Source of the DNA: a virus
Taxonomy: Duplodnaviria > Caudoviricetes
Length of the DNA: 64,000 nucleotides
Strand: one strand, 5' to 3'
IMG/VR virus record: IMGVR_UViG_3300020112_000918
Location: 32,001 to 96,000 of that record
Shown: positions 1,396-40,920 of the stretch, in pieces
Position numbering within the stretch: position 1 is the first letter of the stretch
How the letters are laid out: every line of letters begins with the position of its first letter
Notes under the pieces: generated by a model
What the model was told of the DNA's origin: nothing
Databases searched by the model: none
Seen by the model: only the letters and a program-made list of their open reading frames with translations
Program-made: the position numbers and the translations under genes

Positions 1396-2298
1396 ATGAG
1401 CGTGTATCACGGATCACATAGAATAGCTGGATCTAATAAAAACGTTATTCGAGACAGTTTAACTCGTCAGGATACTACTTGGTCTTCTGCCAAAATTGCT
1501 GAAGAAATTCAAAATGCTAAAACATATGCATCCTACGCAGCTATGCTTGGAGAAAACTTTACTAACGGGGTTTTAACAGAACGCAACTTAGTAAATGTTT
1601 TAGGAGCTACTAGTGTTGCGGATGCTTTTGCTAAGCTGCAGGCAAAAACTTCTGTGGGAGATTTTACAAACTTAGGATTGGGAGACTATATTGATATTCC
1701 TTCTATCACTTTTGACGGTCAGACTTTGACTCATAATCCTTCTTATGAAAATCTTCGAGTTCAGATAATTGCGTTTGACTACTTTAAAAACTACTATAAT
1801 ACTACTCATCATGCAGTAATGCAGTTTAAGCATTGTCCTTTTAAAAAGGAAATTAACTCTGCAAACTCTAACGTAGGTGGCTATCCTGCTATGCCTATAG
1901 CAGGTTACTTGAGTACTACTTTTGGAGCAGGACTTGAAGCAGCTATAGGAATTAACTGTTTGTCTATTAAGCAGTTCTTCCAGAAAGCAGCTACTGCTTG
2001 GTCGAACTCTACAGGATACAAAGTATTTTTACCTACAGAAAATCAGCTGATTGGACACAAAGGTTCTTCTACAGTAGCTACAAATTTTGTTTCCTATGAA
2101 CTAGGTCAGTTCCCTTACTACACAATTAATCCTAAGGGTCTTATGAAGAACTCTAATGGAGTACTTCACTACTATTGGACAGCTTCTCCGTTGTTTGCTG
2201 TCTCGTATCGCTTTGCTTACGTGGGCGACAGTGGTCGCGTGTACGACGGCAGTGCTAATGATGACGTTATCGGTGTTGCTCCAGTTTTCTGTATCTAG
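1396..2298 (+). CDS. DGR1 target protein, C-type lectin fold (DUF6273-like), probable receptor-binding/tail tip protein
   Basis: C-terminal YYWTASP...FAYV...GVAPVFCI; 3' end is the variable repeat matching TR at 2826-2921. Confidence 0.9.
   Translation: MSVYHGSHRIAGSNKNVIRDSLTRQDTTWSSAKIAEEIQNAKTYASYAAMLGENFTNGVLTERNLVNVLGATSVADAFAKLQAKTSVGDFTNLGLGDYIDIPSITFDGQTLTHNPSYENLRVQIIAFDYFKNYYNTTHHAVMQFKHCPFKKEINSANSNVGGYPAMPIAGYLSTTFGAGLEAAIGINCLSIKQFFQKAATAWSNSTGYKVFLPTENQLIGHKGSSTVATNFVSYELGQFPYYTINPKGLMKNSNGVLHYYWTASPLFAVSYRFAYVGDSGRVYDGSANDDVIGVAPVFCI
2189..2284 (+). repeat. DGR1 variable repeat (VR1)
   Basis: 96-bp ungapped match to TR1; 18 mismatches, all at TR adenines. Confidence 0.97.
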
Positions 2299-2317
2299 TA
2301 TCCAAAATCTTTAATCT

Positions 2318-2337
2318 GGGCTGCATACCTGCAGCCC
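2318..2337 (+). promoter_or_regulatory. DGR1 target-recognition hairpin/cruciform
   Basis: GGGCTGCA-TACC-TGCAGCCC: 8-bp GC-rich stem, 4-nt loop (GGTA = GRNA on bottom strand), just after VR/IMH. Confidence 0.85.
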
Positions 2338-2362
2338 TTGTAACACAGGTTGAACGAGGAAT

Positions 2363-2815
2363 ATGAGCGTACCAGTAAGAAAAAGAAATTTATCTAGCCT
2401 TGAGTTCTATAATACAGCAGTTACAATCTACAAGGACATTGTGTCTATCTTAGACAAACTGCCGAGAAAATTGGTAGATTCAACCAGTCACGAAGTAGAT
2501 AGAACTTACTTAATAGATTTCTATCAGAAAGCGTTTCTGAAAACTTATGAAGATATGATGCTGAATATTGATTTAGCAAATGAGATTTTCATAAGTGATA
2601 AAACTGCAGCCCAGTTTAGAAATAGAAGATTGAGTTACCAGGATACAGCTATCGCTATGTGTACTCATTTAGAAACTCTGGTAGAATTGCTTACAATGAA
2701 TTTTCCTAAAATCGTAGGAGAATTAGGGGTACTGTCTCAGAATCTGGAATTTGAGTTGTCTTTACTAAAAGGATGGAAAGAATACACTAAAAAGAAAAGA
2801 AAGGTGCTTGACTAA
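2363..2815 (+). CDS. avd: DGR accessory variability determinant (Avd-like four-helix bundle)
   Basis: MSVPVRKR..LEFY start, IDLANEIF..RRLSYQDTAI, C-terminal LLKGW; lies between target and TR. Confidence 0.85.
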   Translation: MSVPVRKRNLSSLEFYNTAVTIYKDIVSILDKLPRKLVDSTSHEVDRTYLIDFYQKAFLKTYEDMMLNIDLANEIFISDKTAAQFRNRRLSYQDTAIAMCTHLETLVELLTMNFPKIVGELGVLSQNLEFELSLLKGWKEYTKKKRKVLD

Positions 2816-2825
2816 AAATTATCGT

Positions 2826-2921
2826 CGTTGTTTGCTGACTCGAATAACTTTGCTAACGTGAACAACAATGGTAACGTGAACAACAACAATGCTAATAATG
2901 ACATTATCGGTGTTGCTCCAG
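2826..2921 (+). repeat. DGR1 template repeat (TR1)
   Basis: AAC/AAT-rich (13 AAY codons) copy of VR1. Confidence 0.97.
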
Positions 2922-3194
2922 ATTTAGATAAATATTTGATATCCCAATCTAGAGATCTTAAGTTGTTACACTTCAACTACAAAAAGTGTTGGGATTTTTA
3001 AATTTATTTAAAGGAGTCAAGAGTCCTGCTAGAAATAGCAAATCTTCGGTTTTGACATAAGAAAGTGGACGCTGCTTGCATGGTAGAAGCGTAAGCAAAC
3101 TTCTATTTCATACTTTCAAAATTATGCAGAGTGTAACTTAATTGCTAAAATCCTTCCTCTAGAAAGGATACTCTGTGCAAAACCTTTTTATTTT

Positions 3195-4286
3195 ATGACT
3201 TCTGAAGATCGACGAGAATTAAGATACCAGCGAAGAAAAGCTAAAAGAATTAAAGACCAACCAGATTTTTCTGAACTTTTAAAACCAGAAAATTTATACA
3301 ATTCCTACAAGCTATGCAGAAAAGGAACTTCTTGGAAAGCAGCTGTGCAACGCTATGGAAAACACTGTATACGAAATATTTTTGCTTCTATTGAAAAGCT
3401 AAAGAAAGGAGAACCAATTACAGAACCTTTCAATCTGTTTGAAGTTCAAGAGCGAGGACGTATCAGAGTAGTTATGAGCGTTCGTATAAAAGAAAGAGTA
3501 GTTCAGAAAGCCTTGCATGACTATATACTATTTCCTATTCTAAAACCTACATTAATTCCTGACTCGGGAGCTTGTATAAAAGGAAAAGGAATTTCTTTTA
3601 CGAGAAAACGACTTAAAGAGCATTTGCGCAGATTTTATAGGAAGACTGGAAATAATGAAGGCTACGTACTTTGTGTAGACTACTCGAATTACTTTGGCTC
3701 TATAAGGCATGATGTCTTGTTAAAGTTTTTATCCAAAAAGATTCGAGATGAACAGGTATTAAAGCTAGTAAAAGAAATTTTAGACAATTATAAAAAAATC
3801 GGCTTAGGACTAGGTAGTCAAATTTCTCAGCTATGTGCTTTATTTTATTTAAGTTCAGTAGATCACTTTGTGAAAGAAAAGTTGCGAGTAAAATATTATG
3901 GTCGTTATATGGATGACTGCTACTTAATAAGTGACTCAAAAGAGGAACTTAAGTATTGGCTTAAGGAAATTAGAAAGTTTAGTGAATCCGTTCTAGGACT
4001 AACTATAAGTTCTAGAAAAACTACTATTCAGAAATTAACAAATTTTAAGTTCATTAAGGGACACTACTGCTTATCTCTTACTGGAAAAATTAAAGTTTTT
4101 CCGGATAGGAAAACATTTTTAAGATTTAAACACAAATTCGTTAAAATGTTGAAAATGAAGTGTTCCGAAGAAATTTTGCTTCCTGTAGTGCAGAGCTGGA
4201 AAGGTCATTTAAAATATTTTAATTCTTGGAAAGAGAAGCAAGCAATGTTTAAGCTCTTAGGAACCTATTTAATTAAATCTAGCTAA
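3195..4286 (+). CDS. DGR reverse transcriptase RT1
   Basis: ERVVQ, DYSNYFGSI, GLGSQISQ (DGR-type GxxxSQ), RYMDD; MTSEDRRE..YQRR N-terminus. Confidence 0.95.
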   Translation: MTSEDRRELRYQRRKAKRIKDQPDFSELLKPENLYNSYKLCRKGTSWKAAVQRYGKHCIRNIFASIEKLKKGEPITEPFNLFEVQERGRIRVVMSVRIKERVVQKALHDYILFPILKPTLIPDSGACIKGKGISFTRKRLKEHLRRFYRKTGNNEGYVLCVDYSNYFGSIRHDVLLKFLSKKIRDEQVLKLVKEILDNYKKIGLGLGSQISQLCALFYLSSVDHFVKEKLRVKYYGRYMDDCYLISDSKEELKYWLKEIRKFSESVLGLTISSRKTTIQKLTNFKFIKGHYCLSLTGKIKVFPDRKTFLRFKHKFVKMLKMKCSEEILLPVVQSWKGHLKYFNSWKEKQAMFKLLGTYLIKSS

Positions 4287-4296
4287 GGAGAATAAG

Positions 4297-4701
4297 ATGG
4301 TTTACATTTGGAATAAAGATGAACAAGTAGTATTTCATACAGATAAAAAGTTTGCAGTAGAAGTAGAAAAACTCCCTGCTACGCCAGACTTAGAAATGTC
4401 TGAAGAAGAATTTTATGCAAAACAGCCTATCCGAATAGTAGACGGAAAGTTTACTTTTGGAAAAACTGAAGAAGAACTTTCTCAGGAGGAAGCTGCAGCT
4501 GTAAGAACTAAAAGAGATTATCTTATAAATGAAGTTCAATGGCGTGTAGACAGATACCTTGAACAAAAAGCTGCAGGAGAGACTACAGTAGATTCAGAAG
4601 CAAAGTTTAAAAAGATTTCTGCTTACATAAGAGCTCTGAGAGACATTCCTACTCAGAAAGGATTTCCTTTTGACGTTGTCTGGCCAACTCTGGAGGTCTA
4701 A
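4297..4701 (+). CDS. phage tail (fibre) assembly chaperone-like protein
   Basis: RTKRDYLI...YIRALRDIPTQKGFPFDVVWP motif; CCTATTT at 4264-4270 upstream. Confidence 0.8.
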   Translation: MVYIWNKDEQVVFHTDKKFAVEVEKLPATPDLEMSEEEFYAKQPIRIVDGKFTFGKTEEELSQEEAAAVRTKRDYLINEVQWRVDRYLEQKAAGETTVDSEAKFKKISAYIRALRDIPTQKGFPFDVVWPTLEV

Positions 4702-4896
4702 GTGTTCCTACTCAAGACTCAAGAAGACGCACAAACTAGTTCCTCGATAGGCTTGCCTCCTGCTAATGTTGGTGGCGTTTTTGCCCTCAATACAGGCTCT
4801 CCAGCTCCTAGAGAGGACTCGATCTCAAAGTCAGTTAAACTTTACCTCGATAAAAATAAAGTGCCTCAGAAGGGAGATTTCGGAGGGTCAAAATGA
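4702..4896 (+). CDS. hypothetical protein
   Basis: 64-aa ORF, GGAGG before GTG, coupled to neighbours. Confidence 0.45.
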   Translation: MFLLKTQEDAQTSSSIGLPPANVGGVFALNTGSPAPREDSISKSVKLYLDKNKVPQKGDFGGSK

Positions 4897-5246
4897 ATCC
4901 AGAACTTTTAGATACTGTAAGAATCCTGATGACAGCTGTAATGATCGTCTCTACAGAAACTATCGGGATTCTTCAGTGGCTTAAGAACTTCATGTCAGAC
5001 AAAGGCTCAAAAAGAAAGAGAAACGCTTTTATTGCTTTTTGTATCTTAGTTCCTTGTGCTCTGATGAACTCAACTCTTGTGTCAACCTTGGCTACGGCTA
5101 TATTTAATGTTATATTTCTTTCATTAGCAGTTGAACAGCTTGCTTATCAGACCATTGTAAATGGTATTCCAAAAATCATCGATGCGATGTTTGACAAGGC
5201 TGCTTCCTTTGCTTCTAAGAAAGAAGAAAAGGAGAATTTACAATGA
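4893..5246 (+). CDS. membrane protein, possible holin
   Basis: Two to three hydrophobic segments, charged C-terminus. Confidence 0.5.
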   Translation: MNPELLDTVRILMTAVMIVSTETIGILQWLKNFMSDKGSKRKRNAFIAFCILVPCALMNSTLVSTLATAIFNVIFLSLAVEQLAYQTIVNGIPKIIDAMFDKAASFASKKEEKENLQ

Positions 5247-5902
5247 TTATCTTAAATGAAGCATCTGGAATCCAGAAAGCACAGATAGGAGTTTCTTCTG
5301 AACACAAGAAAGACCCTGCAACAAATCGAGGATTTGGCTATCTCTCACTTGAATACAAAGTAAACGGTGTAAAGCAGAAAGCTCGTTTTTCTTTCGATGC
5401 AAAAACAGGAGTTGTCAATTTCACAGGAGAGCCATGGGACTGGATCAAGAGTGAAATAGCTAAACGACCTTACACTTCCGATGAAAAAGACTTTATGACT
5501 CTTCATGCGAAGTCTTATGCTCGGTTCGTTAAGGGAGCAAGATCTTGTTTCTTTAATGGAACTAAGTGGAGTCTTGGCTACGGTAGTCTTGACGAAGCTG
5601 CTTTGAAAAACAAGAGTAAGATAACAGCAGACATAGTAAACCAGTATTCTATGTTGGTATCTGTTAATCCGATTAATTCTACTTTTTCTTACAACCTGAG
5701 AGATCAGGCTCTGTCCCAGGAAATAGCAATTCCGTTTATTGAGAATCCAGCTTATCCTTACATGTTTATTCTGAGACCAGACAAGCAGGAAGAGTTTGAG
5801 CAGCTTTGCAAAAAATACTGCACCCGTTCTTCTTCTGGTTGGTTTACTGTGTCTAGAAGACCTTCTTCTATCGCAGTGGGCAAGAAAGTCTACTTAGTAT
5901 AA
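5243..5902 (+). CDS. hypothetical protein (possible internal head protein)
   Basis: 219-aa ORF, SD AAGGAG, MIILNE|A leader. Confidence 0.6.
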   Translation: MIILNEASGIQKAQIGVSSEHKKDPATNRGFGYLSLEYKVNGVKQKARFSFDAKTGVVNFTGEPWDWIKSEIAKRPYTSDEKDFMTLHAKSYARFVKGARSCFFNGTKWSLGYGSLDEAALKNKSKITADIVNQYSMLVSVNPINSTFSYNLRDQALSQEIAIPFIENPAYPYMFILRPDKQEEFEQLCKKYCTRSSSGWFTVSRRPSSIAVGKKVYLV

Positions 5903-31910: not shown

Positions 31911-32095
31911 TAGAATGCCTAAAAATAACGACTGTTCTTCAACTAAACTCTTAAAGGATTTTTCGATTCATTATCTACTAAATTATCTTTAAAACACTCT
32001 CGACTGTAAATTTGTCGTTTTATGAAACGTGCAGGTACAAGCTGTCAGTCTTATAAGTTTAAAAGCGGAGTGAGAGTTACTCCTCAACTTATGAT

Positions 32096-35232: not shown

Positions 35233-35329
35233 ATATTTACCTCTACGAATTATAATTCCTCGAGGAAACAAAAAGGGGACCCATTTCTGGATCCCCTCTT
35301 CTTAGGTCAGACAAAAAGTCTGCTTACGA

Positions 35330-39276: not shown

Positions 39277-39292
39277 AAGATCTCCTTAAAAT

Positions 39293-39370
39293 AAGAACGG
39301 GGAGGATTCGAACCTCCACAATTCAGAACAGGCTACAAGTTCTAGTGTCTACCTTTTGCACCACCGTTCC
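39293..39370 (-). tRNA. aberrant tRNA (Leu-like D arm, 9-nt anticodon loop TTGTAGCCT)
   Basis: Acceptor GGAACGG/CCGTTCT, T arm GGAGG-TTCGAAT-CCTCC, anticodon stem AGAAC/GTTCT; identity uncertain. Confidence 0.6.
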
Positions 39371-39382
39371 TGCAGTTAGTAT

Positions 39383-39712
39383 TTACGATTTTGCTTTCTT
39401 GACGACAATCGCCCCGAAGATAATATCCAGAATAATTACAACGCCACCAATAACGGATTCAATAATAGACCCAGAAATTCCGGCTACCGTTAAAGCTGCT
39501 ACACCCAAAGTCATTAGTACTACAAATACCCAGCACTTCCAGCCTTTTACCTCATCTTTCATCAAGATGTCAAAGATAGAAGTTACAGCACCTGCAATAA
39601 TGAGGGCAACAGCGATGATGTCTGCTACAGGCATCTTAACAAGGTATCCTACTACGATACCTGCTACCAAAAGAATAAGACCTACAATAGTCTTCCAAGA
39701 AAATTTAGTCAT
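39383..39712 (-). CDS. four-TM membrane protein (holin-like)
   Basis: Four hydrophobic helices, basic C-terminus, CCTATTT at 39740-39746. Confidence 0.6.
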   Translation of the reverse strand: MTKFSWKTIVGLILLVAGIVVGYLVKMPVADIIAVALIIAGAVTSIFDILMKDEVKGWKCWVFVVLMTLGVAALTVAGISGSIIESVIGGVVIILDIIFGAIVVKKAKS

Positions 39713-39754: not shown

Positions 39755-39787
39755 AAAAAAGACCTGAAACTTTTTGTTCCAGGTCTT
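39755..39787 (-). terminator. terminator ending the ncRNA tract
   Basis: AGACCTGGAAC-AAAAA-GTTTCAGGTCT-TTTTT on minus strand. Confidence 0.75.
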
Positions 39788-39939
39788 CTAATACAGAGAA
39801 AACGAGAGCCTTTGGCTTTCGAACACTACCAATAGTCTACTCACCTTAGATACTCTCTAGTCGTGTCCTACTGCAGATAAGACTTTTACGTCCGACTCAG
39901 ACGGTCAAGATTTTTGGTAAGGCTCATTGACAGCACTTT

Positions 39940-40003
39940 AGGACCAAAGAGGAATTGAACCTCTAATTTCTTTGCCAAAGGAATCCTGAGACCTTGTTAG
40001 CCC
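39940..40003 (-). ncRNA. tRNA-like element (D-armless, Ala-like)
   Basis: GGGCTAA/TTGGTCC with G3.U70, loop TT-GGC-AA, T arm AGAGG-TTCAATT-CCTCT. Confidence 0.55.
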
Positions 40004-40141
40004 TATCCGAGTTTACGTTTCGAAAAACGAAGAGCCTTGCACTCTTGCGGAAGTTTTAGTAGCCACGTATGCGATTCTGTGGTATTTGTGCTACCCGTTC
40101 GACTTCTAAACTAGTTGTGACAAGCGACGCAGTCACATATG

Positions 40142-40204
40142 CGGGATATCAGGTATCGAACCTGTTAGTAACTAAGTTACTCCGTAAGCCAACTACGGTA
40201 TCCC
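40142..40204 (-). ncRNA. compact tRNA-like element (63 nt)
   Basis: GGGATA/TATCCC, D arm CCGTA-GTTGGCT-TACGG, AGTAAC-TTA-GTTACT arm, T arm CAGG-TTCGATA-CCTG. Confidence 0.6.
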
Positions 40205-40322
40205 AAGAAAAATGCTCAAGCAAGTGGGAGAAGAGCTTGAACGTATAAGGGATGCTCCGGAGAGCACCTCCACTACTCTGTTTGTTCTTTTCCAGAAGCT
40301 GCAAACAGAGAAAAAAGCCTAG

Positions 40323-40695
40323 TGGAGCATAGGGGAATTGAACCCCTGTCCGAGAAATAGCAACGTAACTACTTTTATACGGTCGTAAGCAACCTGTTTT
40401 AGCAGATGGCATTGTTGCGTTGCCACGATGAATAACCCTGTAATTTCTCATCAGAGTGCAGGATCTGCTTAACTCACTTACTGATGATAGACCTCTCATG
40501 TTTCGCAGGATTCCCCTTAGGAAGTCTTGAAAAGGGATCTGCACCTGAGCTCACGCAGTCTCAGGGAAAGCACTGCTTACGCAGCAGCTTTCATTGAGTA
40601 ATCGTTGTCGGTTACTTTAACTTGAACTGTTAAGGACGTTCTAGCCCTGACCGATAGCTAAATTCCTGATAACCCGTCGAAACCAAGAATGCCCC
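40323..40695 (-). ncRNA. ssrA: tmRNA
   Basis: 5' GGGGCATTCTTGGTTTCGAC, 3' GGACAGGGGTTCAATTCCCCTATGCTCCA, G3.U70 pair, tag (A)DNDYSMKAAA* at 40577-40609. Confidence 0.95.
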
Positions 40696-40702
40696 GTAGT
40701 AT

Positions 40703-40876
40703 TTAATTAGACCTGTAAGGCTTATTTCCTTCTTCTAAAGTAAGGTTACGAGCCTTTTCTTCGAATCCTCTTGATGCATTTGCATAAAAGACCTTAAGAT
40801 TTCCGTCTTTTGTTTTGAGAGCTTTTGCAACGCACTTATCTCTCTGATCCATTAAGTGTTGGTAAACTGTTTTCAT
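40703..40876 (-). CDS. small hypothetical protein (57 aa, not in ORF track)
   Basis: MKTVYQHLMDQRDKC...; promoter 40892-40902 and GGAGG; cotranscribed with tmRNA. Confidence 0.65.
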   Translation of the reverse strand: MKTVYQHLMDQRDKCVAKALKTKDGNLKVFYANASRGFEEKARNLTLEEGNKPYRSN

Positions 40877-40920
40877 ACCGTTCCTCCAACTATTATAATT
40901 CCCCAGAGAGATAAAAAGGT

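Follow-up and report, generated by a model that had tools for sequence, protein, structure and literature searches.

A conserved, structured non-coding tract with tRNA-shaped elements in the tmRNA transcription unit of an uncultured phage

We analyzed a window of 64,000 nucleotides (positions 32,001 to 96,000 of the IMG/VR record IMGVR_UViG_3300020112_000918; the phage record comprises 134 kb and is 79% complete) in which an initial annotation, made from the sequence alone, had proposed an array of small RNAs downstream of a tmRNA. On the minus strand, a promoter motif, a gene for a 57-aa protein and the tmRNA are followed by a gene-free stretch of ~565 nt 3' of the tmRNA, which is closed by a terminator and is organized as unit 1, element 1, unit 2, element 2 and unit 3. 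The ORF list contains no credible ORFs within the tract downstream of the tmRNA. The T-arm motif GGTTCRANYCC is present in exactly 3 copies in the 134-kb record, each at the tmRNA/tract locus and on the minus strand. The evidence laid out below supports the identification of the tract as a conserved, structured, non-coding portion of the tmRNA transcription unit, the modules of which are set apart by tRNA-shaped elements. The features of the locus, in the order of the minus strand, are the following.

40892 to 40902, minus strand: promoter motif GGAATTATAAT (includes TATAAT), a perfect match to a recurrent phage motif
40703 to 40876, minus strand: gene for the 57-aa protein (ORF), with the stop codon 7 nt ahead of the tmRNA
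40322 to 40695, minus strand: tmRNA (ARAGORN; Rfam RF00023, 88.5 bits)
40206 to 40321, minus strand: unit 1, three hairpins (minimum-energy fold, z = -2.7)
40276 to 40310, minus strand: hairpin H1 of unit 1, covarying
40250 to 40268, minus strand: hairpin H2 of unit 1, covarying
40214 to 40242, minus strand: hairpin H3 of unit 1, with the C-rich loop UCUCCC, then a U run
40142 to 40205, minus strand: element 1, a compact cloverleaf without an anticodon loop (minimum-energy fold, z = -3.0)
40004 to 40141, minus strand: unit 2, five covarying helices (pair counts and stem variants in relatives)
40116 to 40137, minus strand: helix H2a of unit 2, with the conserved loop UGCGUCGCUU
40050 to 40106, minus strand: long-range pair of helices of unit 2
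40030 to 40046, minus strand: helix H2c of unit 2
40006 to 40024, minus strand: helix H2d of unit 2, with the loop ACGUAAA, ending 2 nt ahead of element 2
39940 to 40003, minus strand: element 2, a tRNA-like RNA without a D arm (Rfam tRNA model; ARAGORN)
39790 to 39939, minus strand: unit 3 (stem variants and pair counts), with a conserved 3' domain after Pc
39904 to 39931, minus strand: Pa of unit 3, a covarying stem with the conserved loop GCCUUACCAAAA
39889 to 39903, minus strand: Pb of unit 3, invariant
39865 to 39883, minus strand: Pc of unit 3, covarying
39853 to 39862, minus strand: GACUAGAGAG in the 3' domain of unit 3, complementary to the 3' half of element 2
39755 to 39789, minus strand: intrinsic terminator (terminator scan), a 14-bp stem, then a U run
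39383 to 39712, minus strand: gene for a 109-aa membrane protein (ORF) with its own AAGGAGG ribosome-binding site, 45 nt past the terminator
39292 to 39371, minus strand: third tRNA-shaped slot, called as tRNA-Leu(UAG) (ARAGORN; Rfam, 35.3 bits), with a 9-nt anticodon loop

The minus-strand promoter that the initial annotation had placed at 40892 is borne out by the abundance of its motif, with 12 copies of GGAATTATAAT in the window against 1.5 expected, and by the conservation of the motif ahead of the homologous small gene in two relatives, L022 and L026; the copy at 40892-40902 is likely to represent the start region of the transcription unit. Homologs of the 57-aa protein, an ORF that had also been noticed from the sequence, share 41-66% identity and occupy the equivalent position in relatives. 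The protein belongs to no Pfam or PHROG family, and its AlphaFold model (pLDDT 94.7) consists of two helices that form a helical hairpin, for which a comparison with PDB folds detected nothing significant; the best-ranked entry, an RNase P protein from an archaeon, has an E value of 2.2 and is meaningless as a match. The tmRNA, likewise recognized at the outset, was recovered by both ARAGORN and Rfam; it encodes the tag DNDYSMKAAA, contains G3·U70, does not encode CCA, and is found in relatives as well.

The three-hairpin unit that had been described after the tmRNA is the minimum-energy fold of unit 1, and covariation upholds two of its hairpins. For H1 and H2, 93.6% of the cells are paired, compared with 42-53% with slid partners, 5 pairs are changed on both sides, and both hairpins are retained even in the divergent clade L026-L028. 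H3 resembles a weak terminator in the window phage and could limit transcription of the remaining tract. Attempts by hand to pair the C-rich loop of H3 with GGUGGAGG further upstream, as a pseudoknot, gave no fit.

Both tRNA-like elements of the original proposal were recovered, with the acceptor stem and T arm kept and the D or anticodon arm abnormal, as had been claimed. In element 1, the four-arm cloverleaf is matched by 1 of 200 shuffles. The acceptor is UGGGAUA/UAUCCCG and all four stems are fully paired; the 'D' stem has 5-6 bp and GG in its loop, in the 'anticodon' position, a 6-bp stem is capped by a loop of 3 nt, and linker bases are lacking; the T arm GGUUCGAUACC departs from GGTTCRANYCC at one position, and its stem ends in an A·A. 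Rfam does not match element 1 at E <= 10, even with a search space of 576 nt, and ARAGORN misses it at the default and 80% thresholds. It is known from the window and the near-identical relative L004 only; in other relatives, the same slot contains an ordinary tRNA-Gln(UUG), at times accompanied by a tRNA-Leu and larger tRNA-shaped RNAs, with the tRNA-Gln(UUG) and tRNA-Leu(UAA) in this slot scoring 54-57 bits. Element 1 and the tRNA-Gln of the relatives have in common the 5' UGGG and 14 of 17 T-arm bases, and three acceptor pairs are changed on both sides. Element 1 appears to be a lineage-specific substitute for the tRNA-Gln(UUG) cassette of the relatives. The canonical tRNAs of the array have all been lost in the window phage.

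The 26 pairs of unit 2 are 96.5% paired in the relatives (36-58% with slid partners), and both sides are changed in 10 of them, a count reached by 0 of 500 shuffles. By folding energy alone, units 2 and 3 are no better than shuffled sequence (z = 0.1 and z = 0.0, respectively). The main clade of relatives does not retain in its unit 2 the string AAGGCTCT(T)CGTTTT, which had been reported as common to the last two units.

Element 2 scores 19.8 bits against the Rfam tRNA model, in an alignment that deletes the D arm, and falls short of the RF00005 gathering score of 29 bits; it is called by ARAGORN at the relaxed 80% threshold only; among the clan members in cmscan, the tRNA model is the best match, over the tmRNA model. 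The acceptor GGGCUAA/UUGGUCC, which includes G3·U70, abuts the T stem; 13 nt replace the D arm, the variable region has 2 nt, the stem-loop carries UUGGCAA, the discriminator is U and CCA is not encoded. The T arm is perfect, with the exact GGTTCRANYCC, and the T loop UUCAAUU is the T loop of the phage's own tmRNA. The acceptor register chosen by ARAGORN (GGAUAGG...) fails in the relatives, whereas GGGCUAA/UUGGUCC holds. Of the 14 sequences that include the 5' strand, 13 have G3·U70 and one, L004, has A3-U70, and clade B has an extra U within the acceptor 5' strand. Element 2 is not a decoder because its 'anticodon' varies (GGC, but GCC in L009) and clade B has C in place of U33. The 3' half of element 2 is also complementary to GACUAGAGAG of unit 3, with alternative folds within ~1-3 kcal/mol, and, as this rival pairing is nearly isoenergetic, the tRNA-like fold is not proven. 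For the entire element 2 plus unit 3, RNAalifold returns a long-range fold that abolishes the tRNA shape, on an alignment with little variation.

In unit 3, a 21-nt core is identical across all clade A and B sequences. The helices GAGCCTT/AAGGCTC and TACCAA/TTGGTA, which had been proposed to close this unit, stand only as complementary strings: both complements are present, but they never covary and are broken in some relatives, and the GA of GAGCCTT belongs to a covarying local hairpin instead. The terminator predicted at the end of the tract was found by the terminator scan at 39757-39789, and its stem is 100% paired among the relatives, with 2 pairs changed on both sides. One of the homologs of the 109-aa protein encoded beyond it is labelled 'uncharacterized membrane protein' by its source. 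There is no copy of GGAATTATAAT ahead of this gene, the next minus-strand copy being at 35249. The third tRNA-shaped slot, downstream of the gene, contains unrelated middles within the same frame in the relatives.

The comparison set consists of ~20 related metagenomic contigs that represent about five independent lineages. It establishes the anatomy, conservation, covariation and synteny of the locus: the gene order is the same, the flanking proteins are 65-97% identical and the hairpins of the tract covary. Conservation in related phages, which the initial annotation had pointed to as a check, thus bears the tract out, most strongly in element 2 (92-97% identity to the relatives) and unit 3 (87-91%), as compared with 81-86% for the next ORF, 71-75% for the tmRNA and 67-73% for units 1 and 2. 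Element 2 and unit 3 together are the conserved core of the locus. In L022, a deletion has removed everything from tmRNA base 21 through unit 2, and element 2, unit 3 and the terminator are retained. The window and L004 have 14 differences in 607 nt, none of which breaks a helix, and four of these differences are two compensated events in Pa. Cassettes have been gained and lost in the array among the relatives, and the divergent clade L026-L028 keeps the membrane protein gene and a terminator, with unit 3 absent. Units 1 to 3 are folded conserved RNAs and, judged by the compensatory changes that preserve its hairpins, the tract as a whole appears to be a real RNA. Loops that stay invariant on top of covarying stems suggest that these RNAs pair with, or bind, partners from the host or the phage. 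In the rest of the phage genome, complements to the conserved loops reach 9-10 nt, which is the chance length only, so no phage target was found.

Searches beyond the comparison set yielded little. The locus has no blastn match among 50,697 phage records, protein-seeded IMG/VR scans with two neighboring genes returned nothing, and the pattern of the unit 3 core has 0 matches in IMG/VR and 0 in GTDB genomes. In IMG/VR, the pattern of the tmRNA 3' end retrieved nothing beyond a fragment of a tmRNA (L002) and a phage tmRNA that is unrelated (L003), and its absence from GTDB genomes (0 matches) leaves no clue to the host. A permissive Rfam search (E <= 10) detected no YrlA, 6S, ROOL, GOLLD, T-box or riboswitch in the tract; weak matches to ncr1015 and SdsR cover the terminator only. 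The 134-kb record contains no gene for TROVE, SmpB, CCA-adding enzyme, RNA ligase or RtcB.

Taken together, we favor, with a probability of about 0.6, the reading that the tract is the RNA-only part of an operon, the modules of which are released by cutting at the tRNA-shaped elements. The modules are presumably co-transcribed. Both elements appear to retain what the processing enzymes measure, namely a 7-bp acceptor stacked on the T arm, a standard T loop and no encoded CCA, and seem to be without the features needed for decoding. Given that these tRNA-processing features are kept, the host RNase P would be expected to cut at the 5' ends of the elements, near 40205/40206 and 40003/40004, and RNase Z or an equivalent 3' nuclease would cut after the discriminators, near 40141 and 39940. 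We consider such processing of the elements by the two enzymes likely. Together with the maturation of the tmRNA, these cuts would free unit 1 (~115 nt), element 1 (~65 nt), unit 2 (~137 nt), element 2 (~64 nt) and unit 3 with the terminator (~185 nt) as individual RNAs; the released products are probably stable. Since real tRNAs occupy the separator slot in relatives, the array must be processed there, and excision of tRNA-Gln by RNase P and a 3' nuclease, which would free the flanking modules, seems close to unavoidable in these phages.

Some of the same observations could be read as evidence that element 2 is itself the active product, alone or together with unit 3, as a mimic of tRNA-Ala or of the tmRNA's tRNA-like domain (TLD) that would tune or block trans-translation via AlaRS, SmpB or EF-Tu. 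A precedent is the TLD-only (CDS-less) tmRNA of mycobacteriophage DS6A and some plastids, a ~65-nt molecule with an alanine-type acceptor and T arm that inhibits tmRNA, alanine-chargeable or not (PMC4131195; PMC11915505). Element 2 resembles the DS6A molecule in size, in the nearly universal G3·U70 and in the T loop that it shares with the phage tmRNA, and the missing D arm, the lack of a decoding function, the highest conservation in the locus and the retention in the L022 deletion all fit this possibility. Unlike the DS6A molecule, however, element 2 has a full tmRNA alongside, its discriminator is U rather than A, and an extra stem-loop occupies the place of SmpB in a phage that itself lacks smpB; furthermore, Rfam ranks the tRNA model above the tmRNA model, and in the closest relative, L004, the AlaRS determinant is gone even though the pair is kept. 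We consider such a mimic rather unlikely. A related and more elaborate proposal, which we regard as distinctly unlikely, is that element 2 and unit 3 form an undescribed phage RNA family, with a D-arm-less head of the tmRNA/alanine type and a 140-nt domain that would pair with the 3' half of the head via GACUAGAGAG; the RNA would alternate between a closed state and one that is shaped like a tRNA and can be seen by RNase P, SmpB or AlaRS, controlling ribosome rescue or downstream read-through alongside the phage's own tmRNA. The two near-isoenergetic folds that this proposal draws on have also been considered under a cis-acting role, in which unit 3, with or without element 2, and the terminator would be a leader of the attenuator or riboswitch kind that sets read-through into the membrane protein gene and beyond. 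Such an arrangement would account for the succession of a conserved structured domain, an intrinsic terminator and, 45 nt on, a ribosome-binding site and start codon, and for the lack of any copy of the phage promoter motif from 40892 to 35259 on the minus strand. Nevertheless, no riboswitch, T-box or leader family is matched, no anti-terminator pairing was identified and L026-L028 keep the gene and a terminator without unit 3, which leaves the leader function only a slim chance.

That the tRNA-shaped elements are what remains of tRNA genes, with spacers that are trailers or insulators aiding the folding and maturation of tmRNA and tRNA and with functionless fragments, appears very unlikely. 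The initial annotation had itself named decaying tRNA genes as the finding that would overturn it, and for element 1 a part of this holds: it lies exactly in the slot of a true tRNA, tRNA-Gln(UUG), with which it shares the 5' end and most of the T arm, in a phage that has lost all canonical tRNAs of an array with cassette turnover. Yet the stems of element 1 are perfect, not decayed, and differ from those of tRNA-Gln by three doubly changed acceptor pairs. Element 2 does not conform to decay at all, its odd form being kept in all relatives; together with unit 3, it exceeds both the tmRNA and the flanking ORF in conservation, and in L022 the two persist with no tmRNA or tRNA needing insulation. 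The loops that are invariant over covarying stems also argue against relics. Slimmer than for the leader function are the chances of a decoy or sponge role, in which the tRNA-shaped RNAs would occupy tRNA-cleaving or tRNA-sensing anti-phage enzymes of the host. The tRNA shape is kept where a usable anticodon is absent, and such elements recur in the clade and in the third slot, but the known anticodon nucleases recognize the anticodon loop, which element 1 does not have, the 79% complete record contains no RNA ligase or RtcB repair gene, and a host or defense context is absent. The suggestion of YrlA-like RNAs is left unsupported: YrlA also joins a tRNA-like module to further helices, but the tract has no Rfam match to it, and the record has no Ro/TROVE gene (PF05731) in a search in which control genomes did match.

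The preferred reading, an array of RNAs released at tRNA-shaped elements, has its closest precedents in the stable RNAs of phages T5 and T4. Extra stable RNAs in the tRNA clusters of these phages have been known since the 1970s, with function unknown, and RNAC and RNAD of T4 are processed from tRNA precursors. The latter (the species 1 and 2 RNAs) are small, lie within the tRNA cluster and are still without a known function (PMC9697503). The sequences in the window are unrelated to RNAC and RNAD, the host group is another one, and T4 is without a tmRNA. The stable RNAs of T5 (RNA1, RNA2, RNAI, RNAIII, RNAIV and RNA2H; GenBank AY543070.1) are likewise small and phage-encoded in a transcribed block with tRNA genes, and RNA1 and RNA2, which abut tRNAs, are annotated in that record as 'tRNA-like stable RNA with unknown functions'. 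Compared with T5, the window has no sequence similarity (blastn, 50,697 phage records), and its block is headed by a tmRNA and has no canonical tRNA but an Ala-type, D-arm-less tRNA-like RNA. As in such phage tRNA-cluster stable RNAs, the tract is non-coding, structured, contiguous with tRNA-like genes and conserved in relatives.

Other parallels concern the mode of release. The mascRNA of MALAT1 and the TMERs of murine gammaherpesvirus 68 are tRNA-shaped processing signals of the t-element type. In the t-elements of plant mitochondria, a non-decoding tRNA fold recruits RNase P or RNase Z and sets the ends of the neighboring RNAs (PMC1920247). All these systems are eukaryotic or organellar and without homology to the window, and the cleavage that has been demonstrated there is what we infer for the phage tract. 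The 3'ETS-leuZ RNA of E. coli is a by-product of tRNA-operon processing that acts as a regulatory RNA; RNAs of this type are released chiefly by RNase E and sponge Hfq-bound small RNAs.

We regard the locus as a novel form of the long-known 'stable RNAs' of phage tRNA clusters rather than a set of dead tRNA genes. It offers a compact and well-conserved example of such RNAs, headed by a tmRNA, in an uncultured phage clade, with modules in which covarying helices and invariant loops are well delimited. Units 1 to 3 contain RNA motifs without an Rfam family, which are candidates for new families. Natural variants, one in which a cloverleaf without an anticodon stands in for tRNA-Gln and one in which a deletion has spared only element 2 and unit 3, indicate where selection on the locus is strongest. 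If the tRNA-shaped elements are indeed processing signals, or mimics of tmRNA or tRNA, the ideas of tRNA punctuation and of TLD inhibitors would extend to large phages.

The virus record (133,795 bp, estimated to be 79% complete; the window comprises its bases 32001-96000) contains only two RNA genes detectable with ARAGORN, both on the minus strand at the tmRNA locus. The interpretation proposed in the initial annotation is supported in part: comparison of this locus across related contigs lends good support to a conserved, structured RNA operon at the tmRNA. The constituents of the predicted operon and its surroundings are:

40892-40902, minus strand: motif GGAATTATAAT, before the 57-aa gene
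40703-40876, minus strand: 57-aa ORF, with homologs that keep this position
40322-40695, minus strand: tmRNA, tag DNDYSMKAAA (ARAGORN; Rfam, 88.5 bits)
40206-40321, minus strand: unit 1, folded RNA spacer with hairpins H1 and H2
40142-40205, minus strand: element 1, tRNA-shaped
40004-40141, minus strand: unit 2, folded RNA spacer
39940-40003, minus strand: element 2, tRNA-shaped
39790-39939, minus strand: unit 3, folded RNA spacer with helices Pa, Pb and Pc
39757-39789, minus strand: terminator (terminator scan)
39292-39371, minus strand: 'tRNA-Leu(UAG)' (ARAGORN; Rfam, 35.3 bits)

The landmarks originally recognized by inspection were recovered by these searches, including the tmRNA, supported by both ARAGORN and Rfam, and the terminator that closes the tract. 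The promoter claimed upstream of the 57-aa ORF corresponds to GGAATTATAAT, which has 12 sites in the window where 1.5 would be expected, most of them on the minus strand (sites include 21388, 23527, 34953, 35249 and 40892 (-)), also lies ahead of the small-gene homolog in two diverged relatives, and probably represents the main promoter class of the phage. The ORF is a genuine gene, with homologs of 51-68 aa (41-66% identity) at the same place in relatives; its product is confidently modeled as a helical hairpin, and a structure search with this predicted fold retrieved no informative match among known structures. An ORF scan detected no credible ORF between the tmRNA 3' end and the terminator. 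Folding of unit 1 yields the three hairpins anticipated after the tmRNA (z = -2.7). The T-arm motif GGTTCRANYCC is present in exactly three copies in the 134-kb record, namely in the tmRNA, element 2 and the tRNA-Leu-like gene, and the T arm of element 1 differs from it by one mismatch. An unrelated IMG/VR phage contig, L003, encodes a tmRNA with the tag GNTSYRVAA (2197-2858, minus strand), directly preceded by tRNA-Arg(UCU) and tRNA-Arg(CCU), that has only the 3'-terminal 29 bases in common with the tmRNA of this phage.

DNA searches of phage records and IMG/VR identified no kin. Relatives were reached through protein searches with two genes downstream of the tract, contig look-ups and one metagenome pattern scan, and about 20 loci that share the gene order of the window were gathered. 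These form four groups: the window with L004; L005, L012, L029, L030 and L031; clade B (L008, L010, L011 and L013-L021); and a divergent clade, L026-L028, whose tmRNA tag is GNDCELKAAA. L009 stands alone, a fragment limited to the 3' part of element 2 plus unit 3. The L022 deletion (see below) and the L009 fragment apart, the array starts with the tmRNA followed by unit 1. In clade B and the L012/L030 group, the element 1 slot is occupied by a canonical tRNA-Gln(UUG) (54-57 bits), followed in some relatives by a 162-nt tRNA-shaped RNA, a canonical tRNA-Leu(UAA) and a 108-nt class-II-like tRNA-shaped RNA, with all four present in L030; the array ends with unit 2, element 2, unit 3, the terminator and a membrane-protein gene. 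The divergent clade keeps H1 and H2 of unit 1, contains three or four other non-canonical tRNA-shaped elements and lacks unit 3. These contents make the array a cassette site, where conserved structured spacers frame an exchange of real tRNAs and tRNA-shaped RNAs. With real tRNAs inside it, the array must be cut by tRNA-processing enzymes in those relatives, which is the strongest, though indirect, argument for the proposal that tRNA-like elements punctuate the transcript for RNase P and RNase Z.

Several further tRNA-shaped RNAs and modules were observed. The 162-nt RNA (L030:180-341) combines a UCGGUCG/CGACCGA acceptor with a middle about 100 nt long, and the 108-nt RNA (L030:477-584) scores 24.3 bits with the Rfam tRNA model in L010; neither receives a tRNA call. 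A hairpin with the conserved loop UGC(G/A)UC(G/A)CUU and a covarying stem (L030:436-476; window 40116-40137, minus strand) is located after tRNA-Leu and after the 108-nt RNA in L030, and in the window after element 1, in the manner of a trailer module that accompanies the cassettes. In the sole 'tRNA' of the phage, Leu(UAG), the anticodon loop is 9 nt long (UUGUAGCCU). Its leucine-type frame recurs in relatives, where the acceptor and T stems covary and enclose unrelated middles: a short hairpin with a 5-nt loop in L005, an insert of about 60 nt in L008, and in L009 a different arm that is called 'Tyr(AUA)'. This locus resembles a third slot, one that accepts tRNA-shaped RNAs with interchangeable middles.

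The patterns of substitution identify the spacers as structured RNAs under selection. Unit 2 comprises 26 pairs in five helices; across the relatives 96.5% of cells are paired and 10 pairs are changed on both sides, a number reached by 0 of 500 shuffles, and pairing drops to 36-58% when partners are slid. H1 and H2 of unit 1 are 93.6% paired, with five pairs changed on both sides. In unit 3, the outer stem of Pa exists in four different versions, and in its inner stem a C-G pair is swapped to G-C. Covariation is also seen in Pc and the terminator; Pb and the T arm do not vary among relatives and therefore give no evidence either way on their pairing. The helices initially proposed to close unit 3 are indeed complementary, but they never covary, are weakened in L005 and L012, and are broken in L022. 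The loops UGCGUCGCUU, ACGUAAA and GCCUUACCAAAA remain constant over changing stems. None of the 14 differences between the window and L004 in 607 nt breaks a helix, and four of them constitute a compensated substitution and a compensated one-pair insertion in Pa.

Conservation is uneven along the locus. Measured against clade B and L012, identity is 92-97% for element 2, 87-91% for unit 3, 81-86% for the membrane ORF, 71-75% for the tmRNA, 72-73% for unit 1 and 67-70% for unit 2. In L022 (2180-2230), a deletion has joined the first 20 tmRNA bases (GGGGCATTCTTGGTTTCGAC) to element 2, with a short microhomology, AGGG, at the junction. Lost are the remaining tmRNA sequence, unit 1, the tRNA slot and unit 2; what follows, from element 2 through unit 3 to the terminator, is intact and almost unchanged. 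Given this retention and the uneven conservation, element 2 plus unit 3 forms the core of the locus. Downstream of the locus in L022, a weak match to HEARO RNA (4122-4356; 44.5 bits, below the threshold of 83) directly precedes a gene with RRXRR and HNH domains (4376-5333), which suggests insertion of an IscB/HEARO-type mobile element; this element is absent from the window.

The tRNA resemblance claimed for both elements was recovered. Element 1 folds as a clean four-arm cloverleaf (z = -3.0), with 'D' and 'anticodon' stems longer than those of a tRNA and a loop of 3 nt. It is seen only in the window and L004, where the copies differ by one base, in a loop. A real tRNA-Gln does occupy this slot in relatives, as decay of a tRNA gene would have it, and element 1 matches it in the 5' UGGG and over most of the T arm; decay is nevertheless disfavored by the acceptor stem, which pairs perfectly although it differs from that tRNA at three pairs on both sides. 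Element 1 thus gives the impression of a cassette that was remodelled or replaced, not of one in random decay. Because only two near-identical copies exist, selection on it is beyond measurement, and a functional mimic is just slightly the better guess than a young relic.

In its alignment to the Rfam tRNA model (19.8 bits; threshold 29), element 2 lacks the D arm and has a shortened variable region. Its acceptor register, GGGCUAA/UUGGUCC, is set by the relatives (U5·G68 here, U5-A68 elsewhere); the register chosen by ARAGORN fails in relatives and was ruled out. G3·U70, the alanine determinant that is also used by tmRNA, is found in all sequences except L004, which has A3-U70, and U is the discriminator base. 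In the window the loop is UUGGCAA, in clade B it is UCGGCAA, and in L009 it contains GCC; being variable, it is no conserved decoding loop. Ten base pairs can form between GACUAGAGAG in unit 3 (39853-39862) and the 3' strand of the T and acceptor stems of element 2 (39942-39951; minus strand); this complementarity is kept in all relatives, seemingly slid rather than lost in L009, and the fold that it forms is within about 1-3 kcal/mol of the tRNA-like one.

The main rival to the punctuation reading is that element 2 is a non-decoding mimic of a tRNA or of the tRNA-like domain (TLD) of tmRNA. G3·U70, the non-decoding loop and a T loop identical to that of the phage tmRNA fit such a role, and the version that requires charging is the weaker one because L004 has lost G3·U70. 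Mycobacteriophage DS6A has a TLD-only tmRNA, and a TLD-only molecule inhibits tmRNA whether chargeable or not (PMC4131195; PMC11915505). A cis-acting leader is possible as well: no GGAATTATAAT copy lies between 40892 and 35259 on the minus strand, so the downstream genes may depend on read-through of the terminator, against which stands the failure to find an anti-terminator. The tRNA-shaped RNAs are also candidate decoys for tRNA-targeting defences; RNA repair genes are absent from the record, at its estimated 79% completeness. The YrlA alternative found no support, with no Rfam match and no Ro gene in the phage record, and no known large or regulatory RNA family in Rfam matches the locus. 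Elsewhere in the window, positions 3000-3205 (+) match RT-2 RNA, which is associated with reverse transcriptases (Rfam, 74 bits, above the gathering score).

Returning to punctuation, arrays of this kind have precedents. In the GenBank record of phage T5, RNA1 and RNA2 carry the annotation 'tRNA-like stable RNA with unknown functions', and RNAI, RNAIII, RNAIV and RNA2H are listed as stable RNAs directly abutting tRNA genes; the function of T4 RNAC and RNAD is still unknown (PMC9697503). In plant mitochondria, the tRNA-like folds of t-elements direct cleavage of neighbouring RNAs by RNase P and RNase Z (PMC1920247). The kind of array is therefore already known. In contrast to these systems, to which it is unrelated in sequence, the present locus is headed by a tmRNA, lacks canonical tRNAs, and contains a strongly conserved D-arm-less tRNA-like RNA together with a 140-nt domain; processing at its tRNA-shaped borders is likely.
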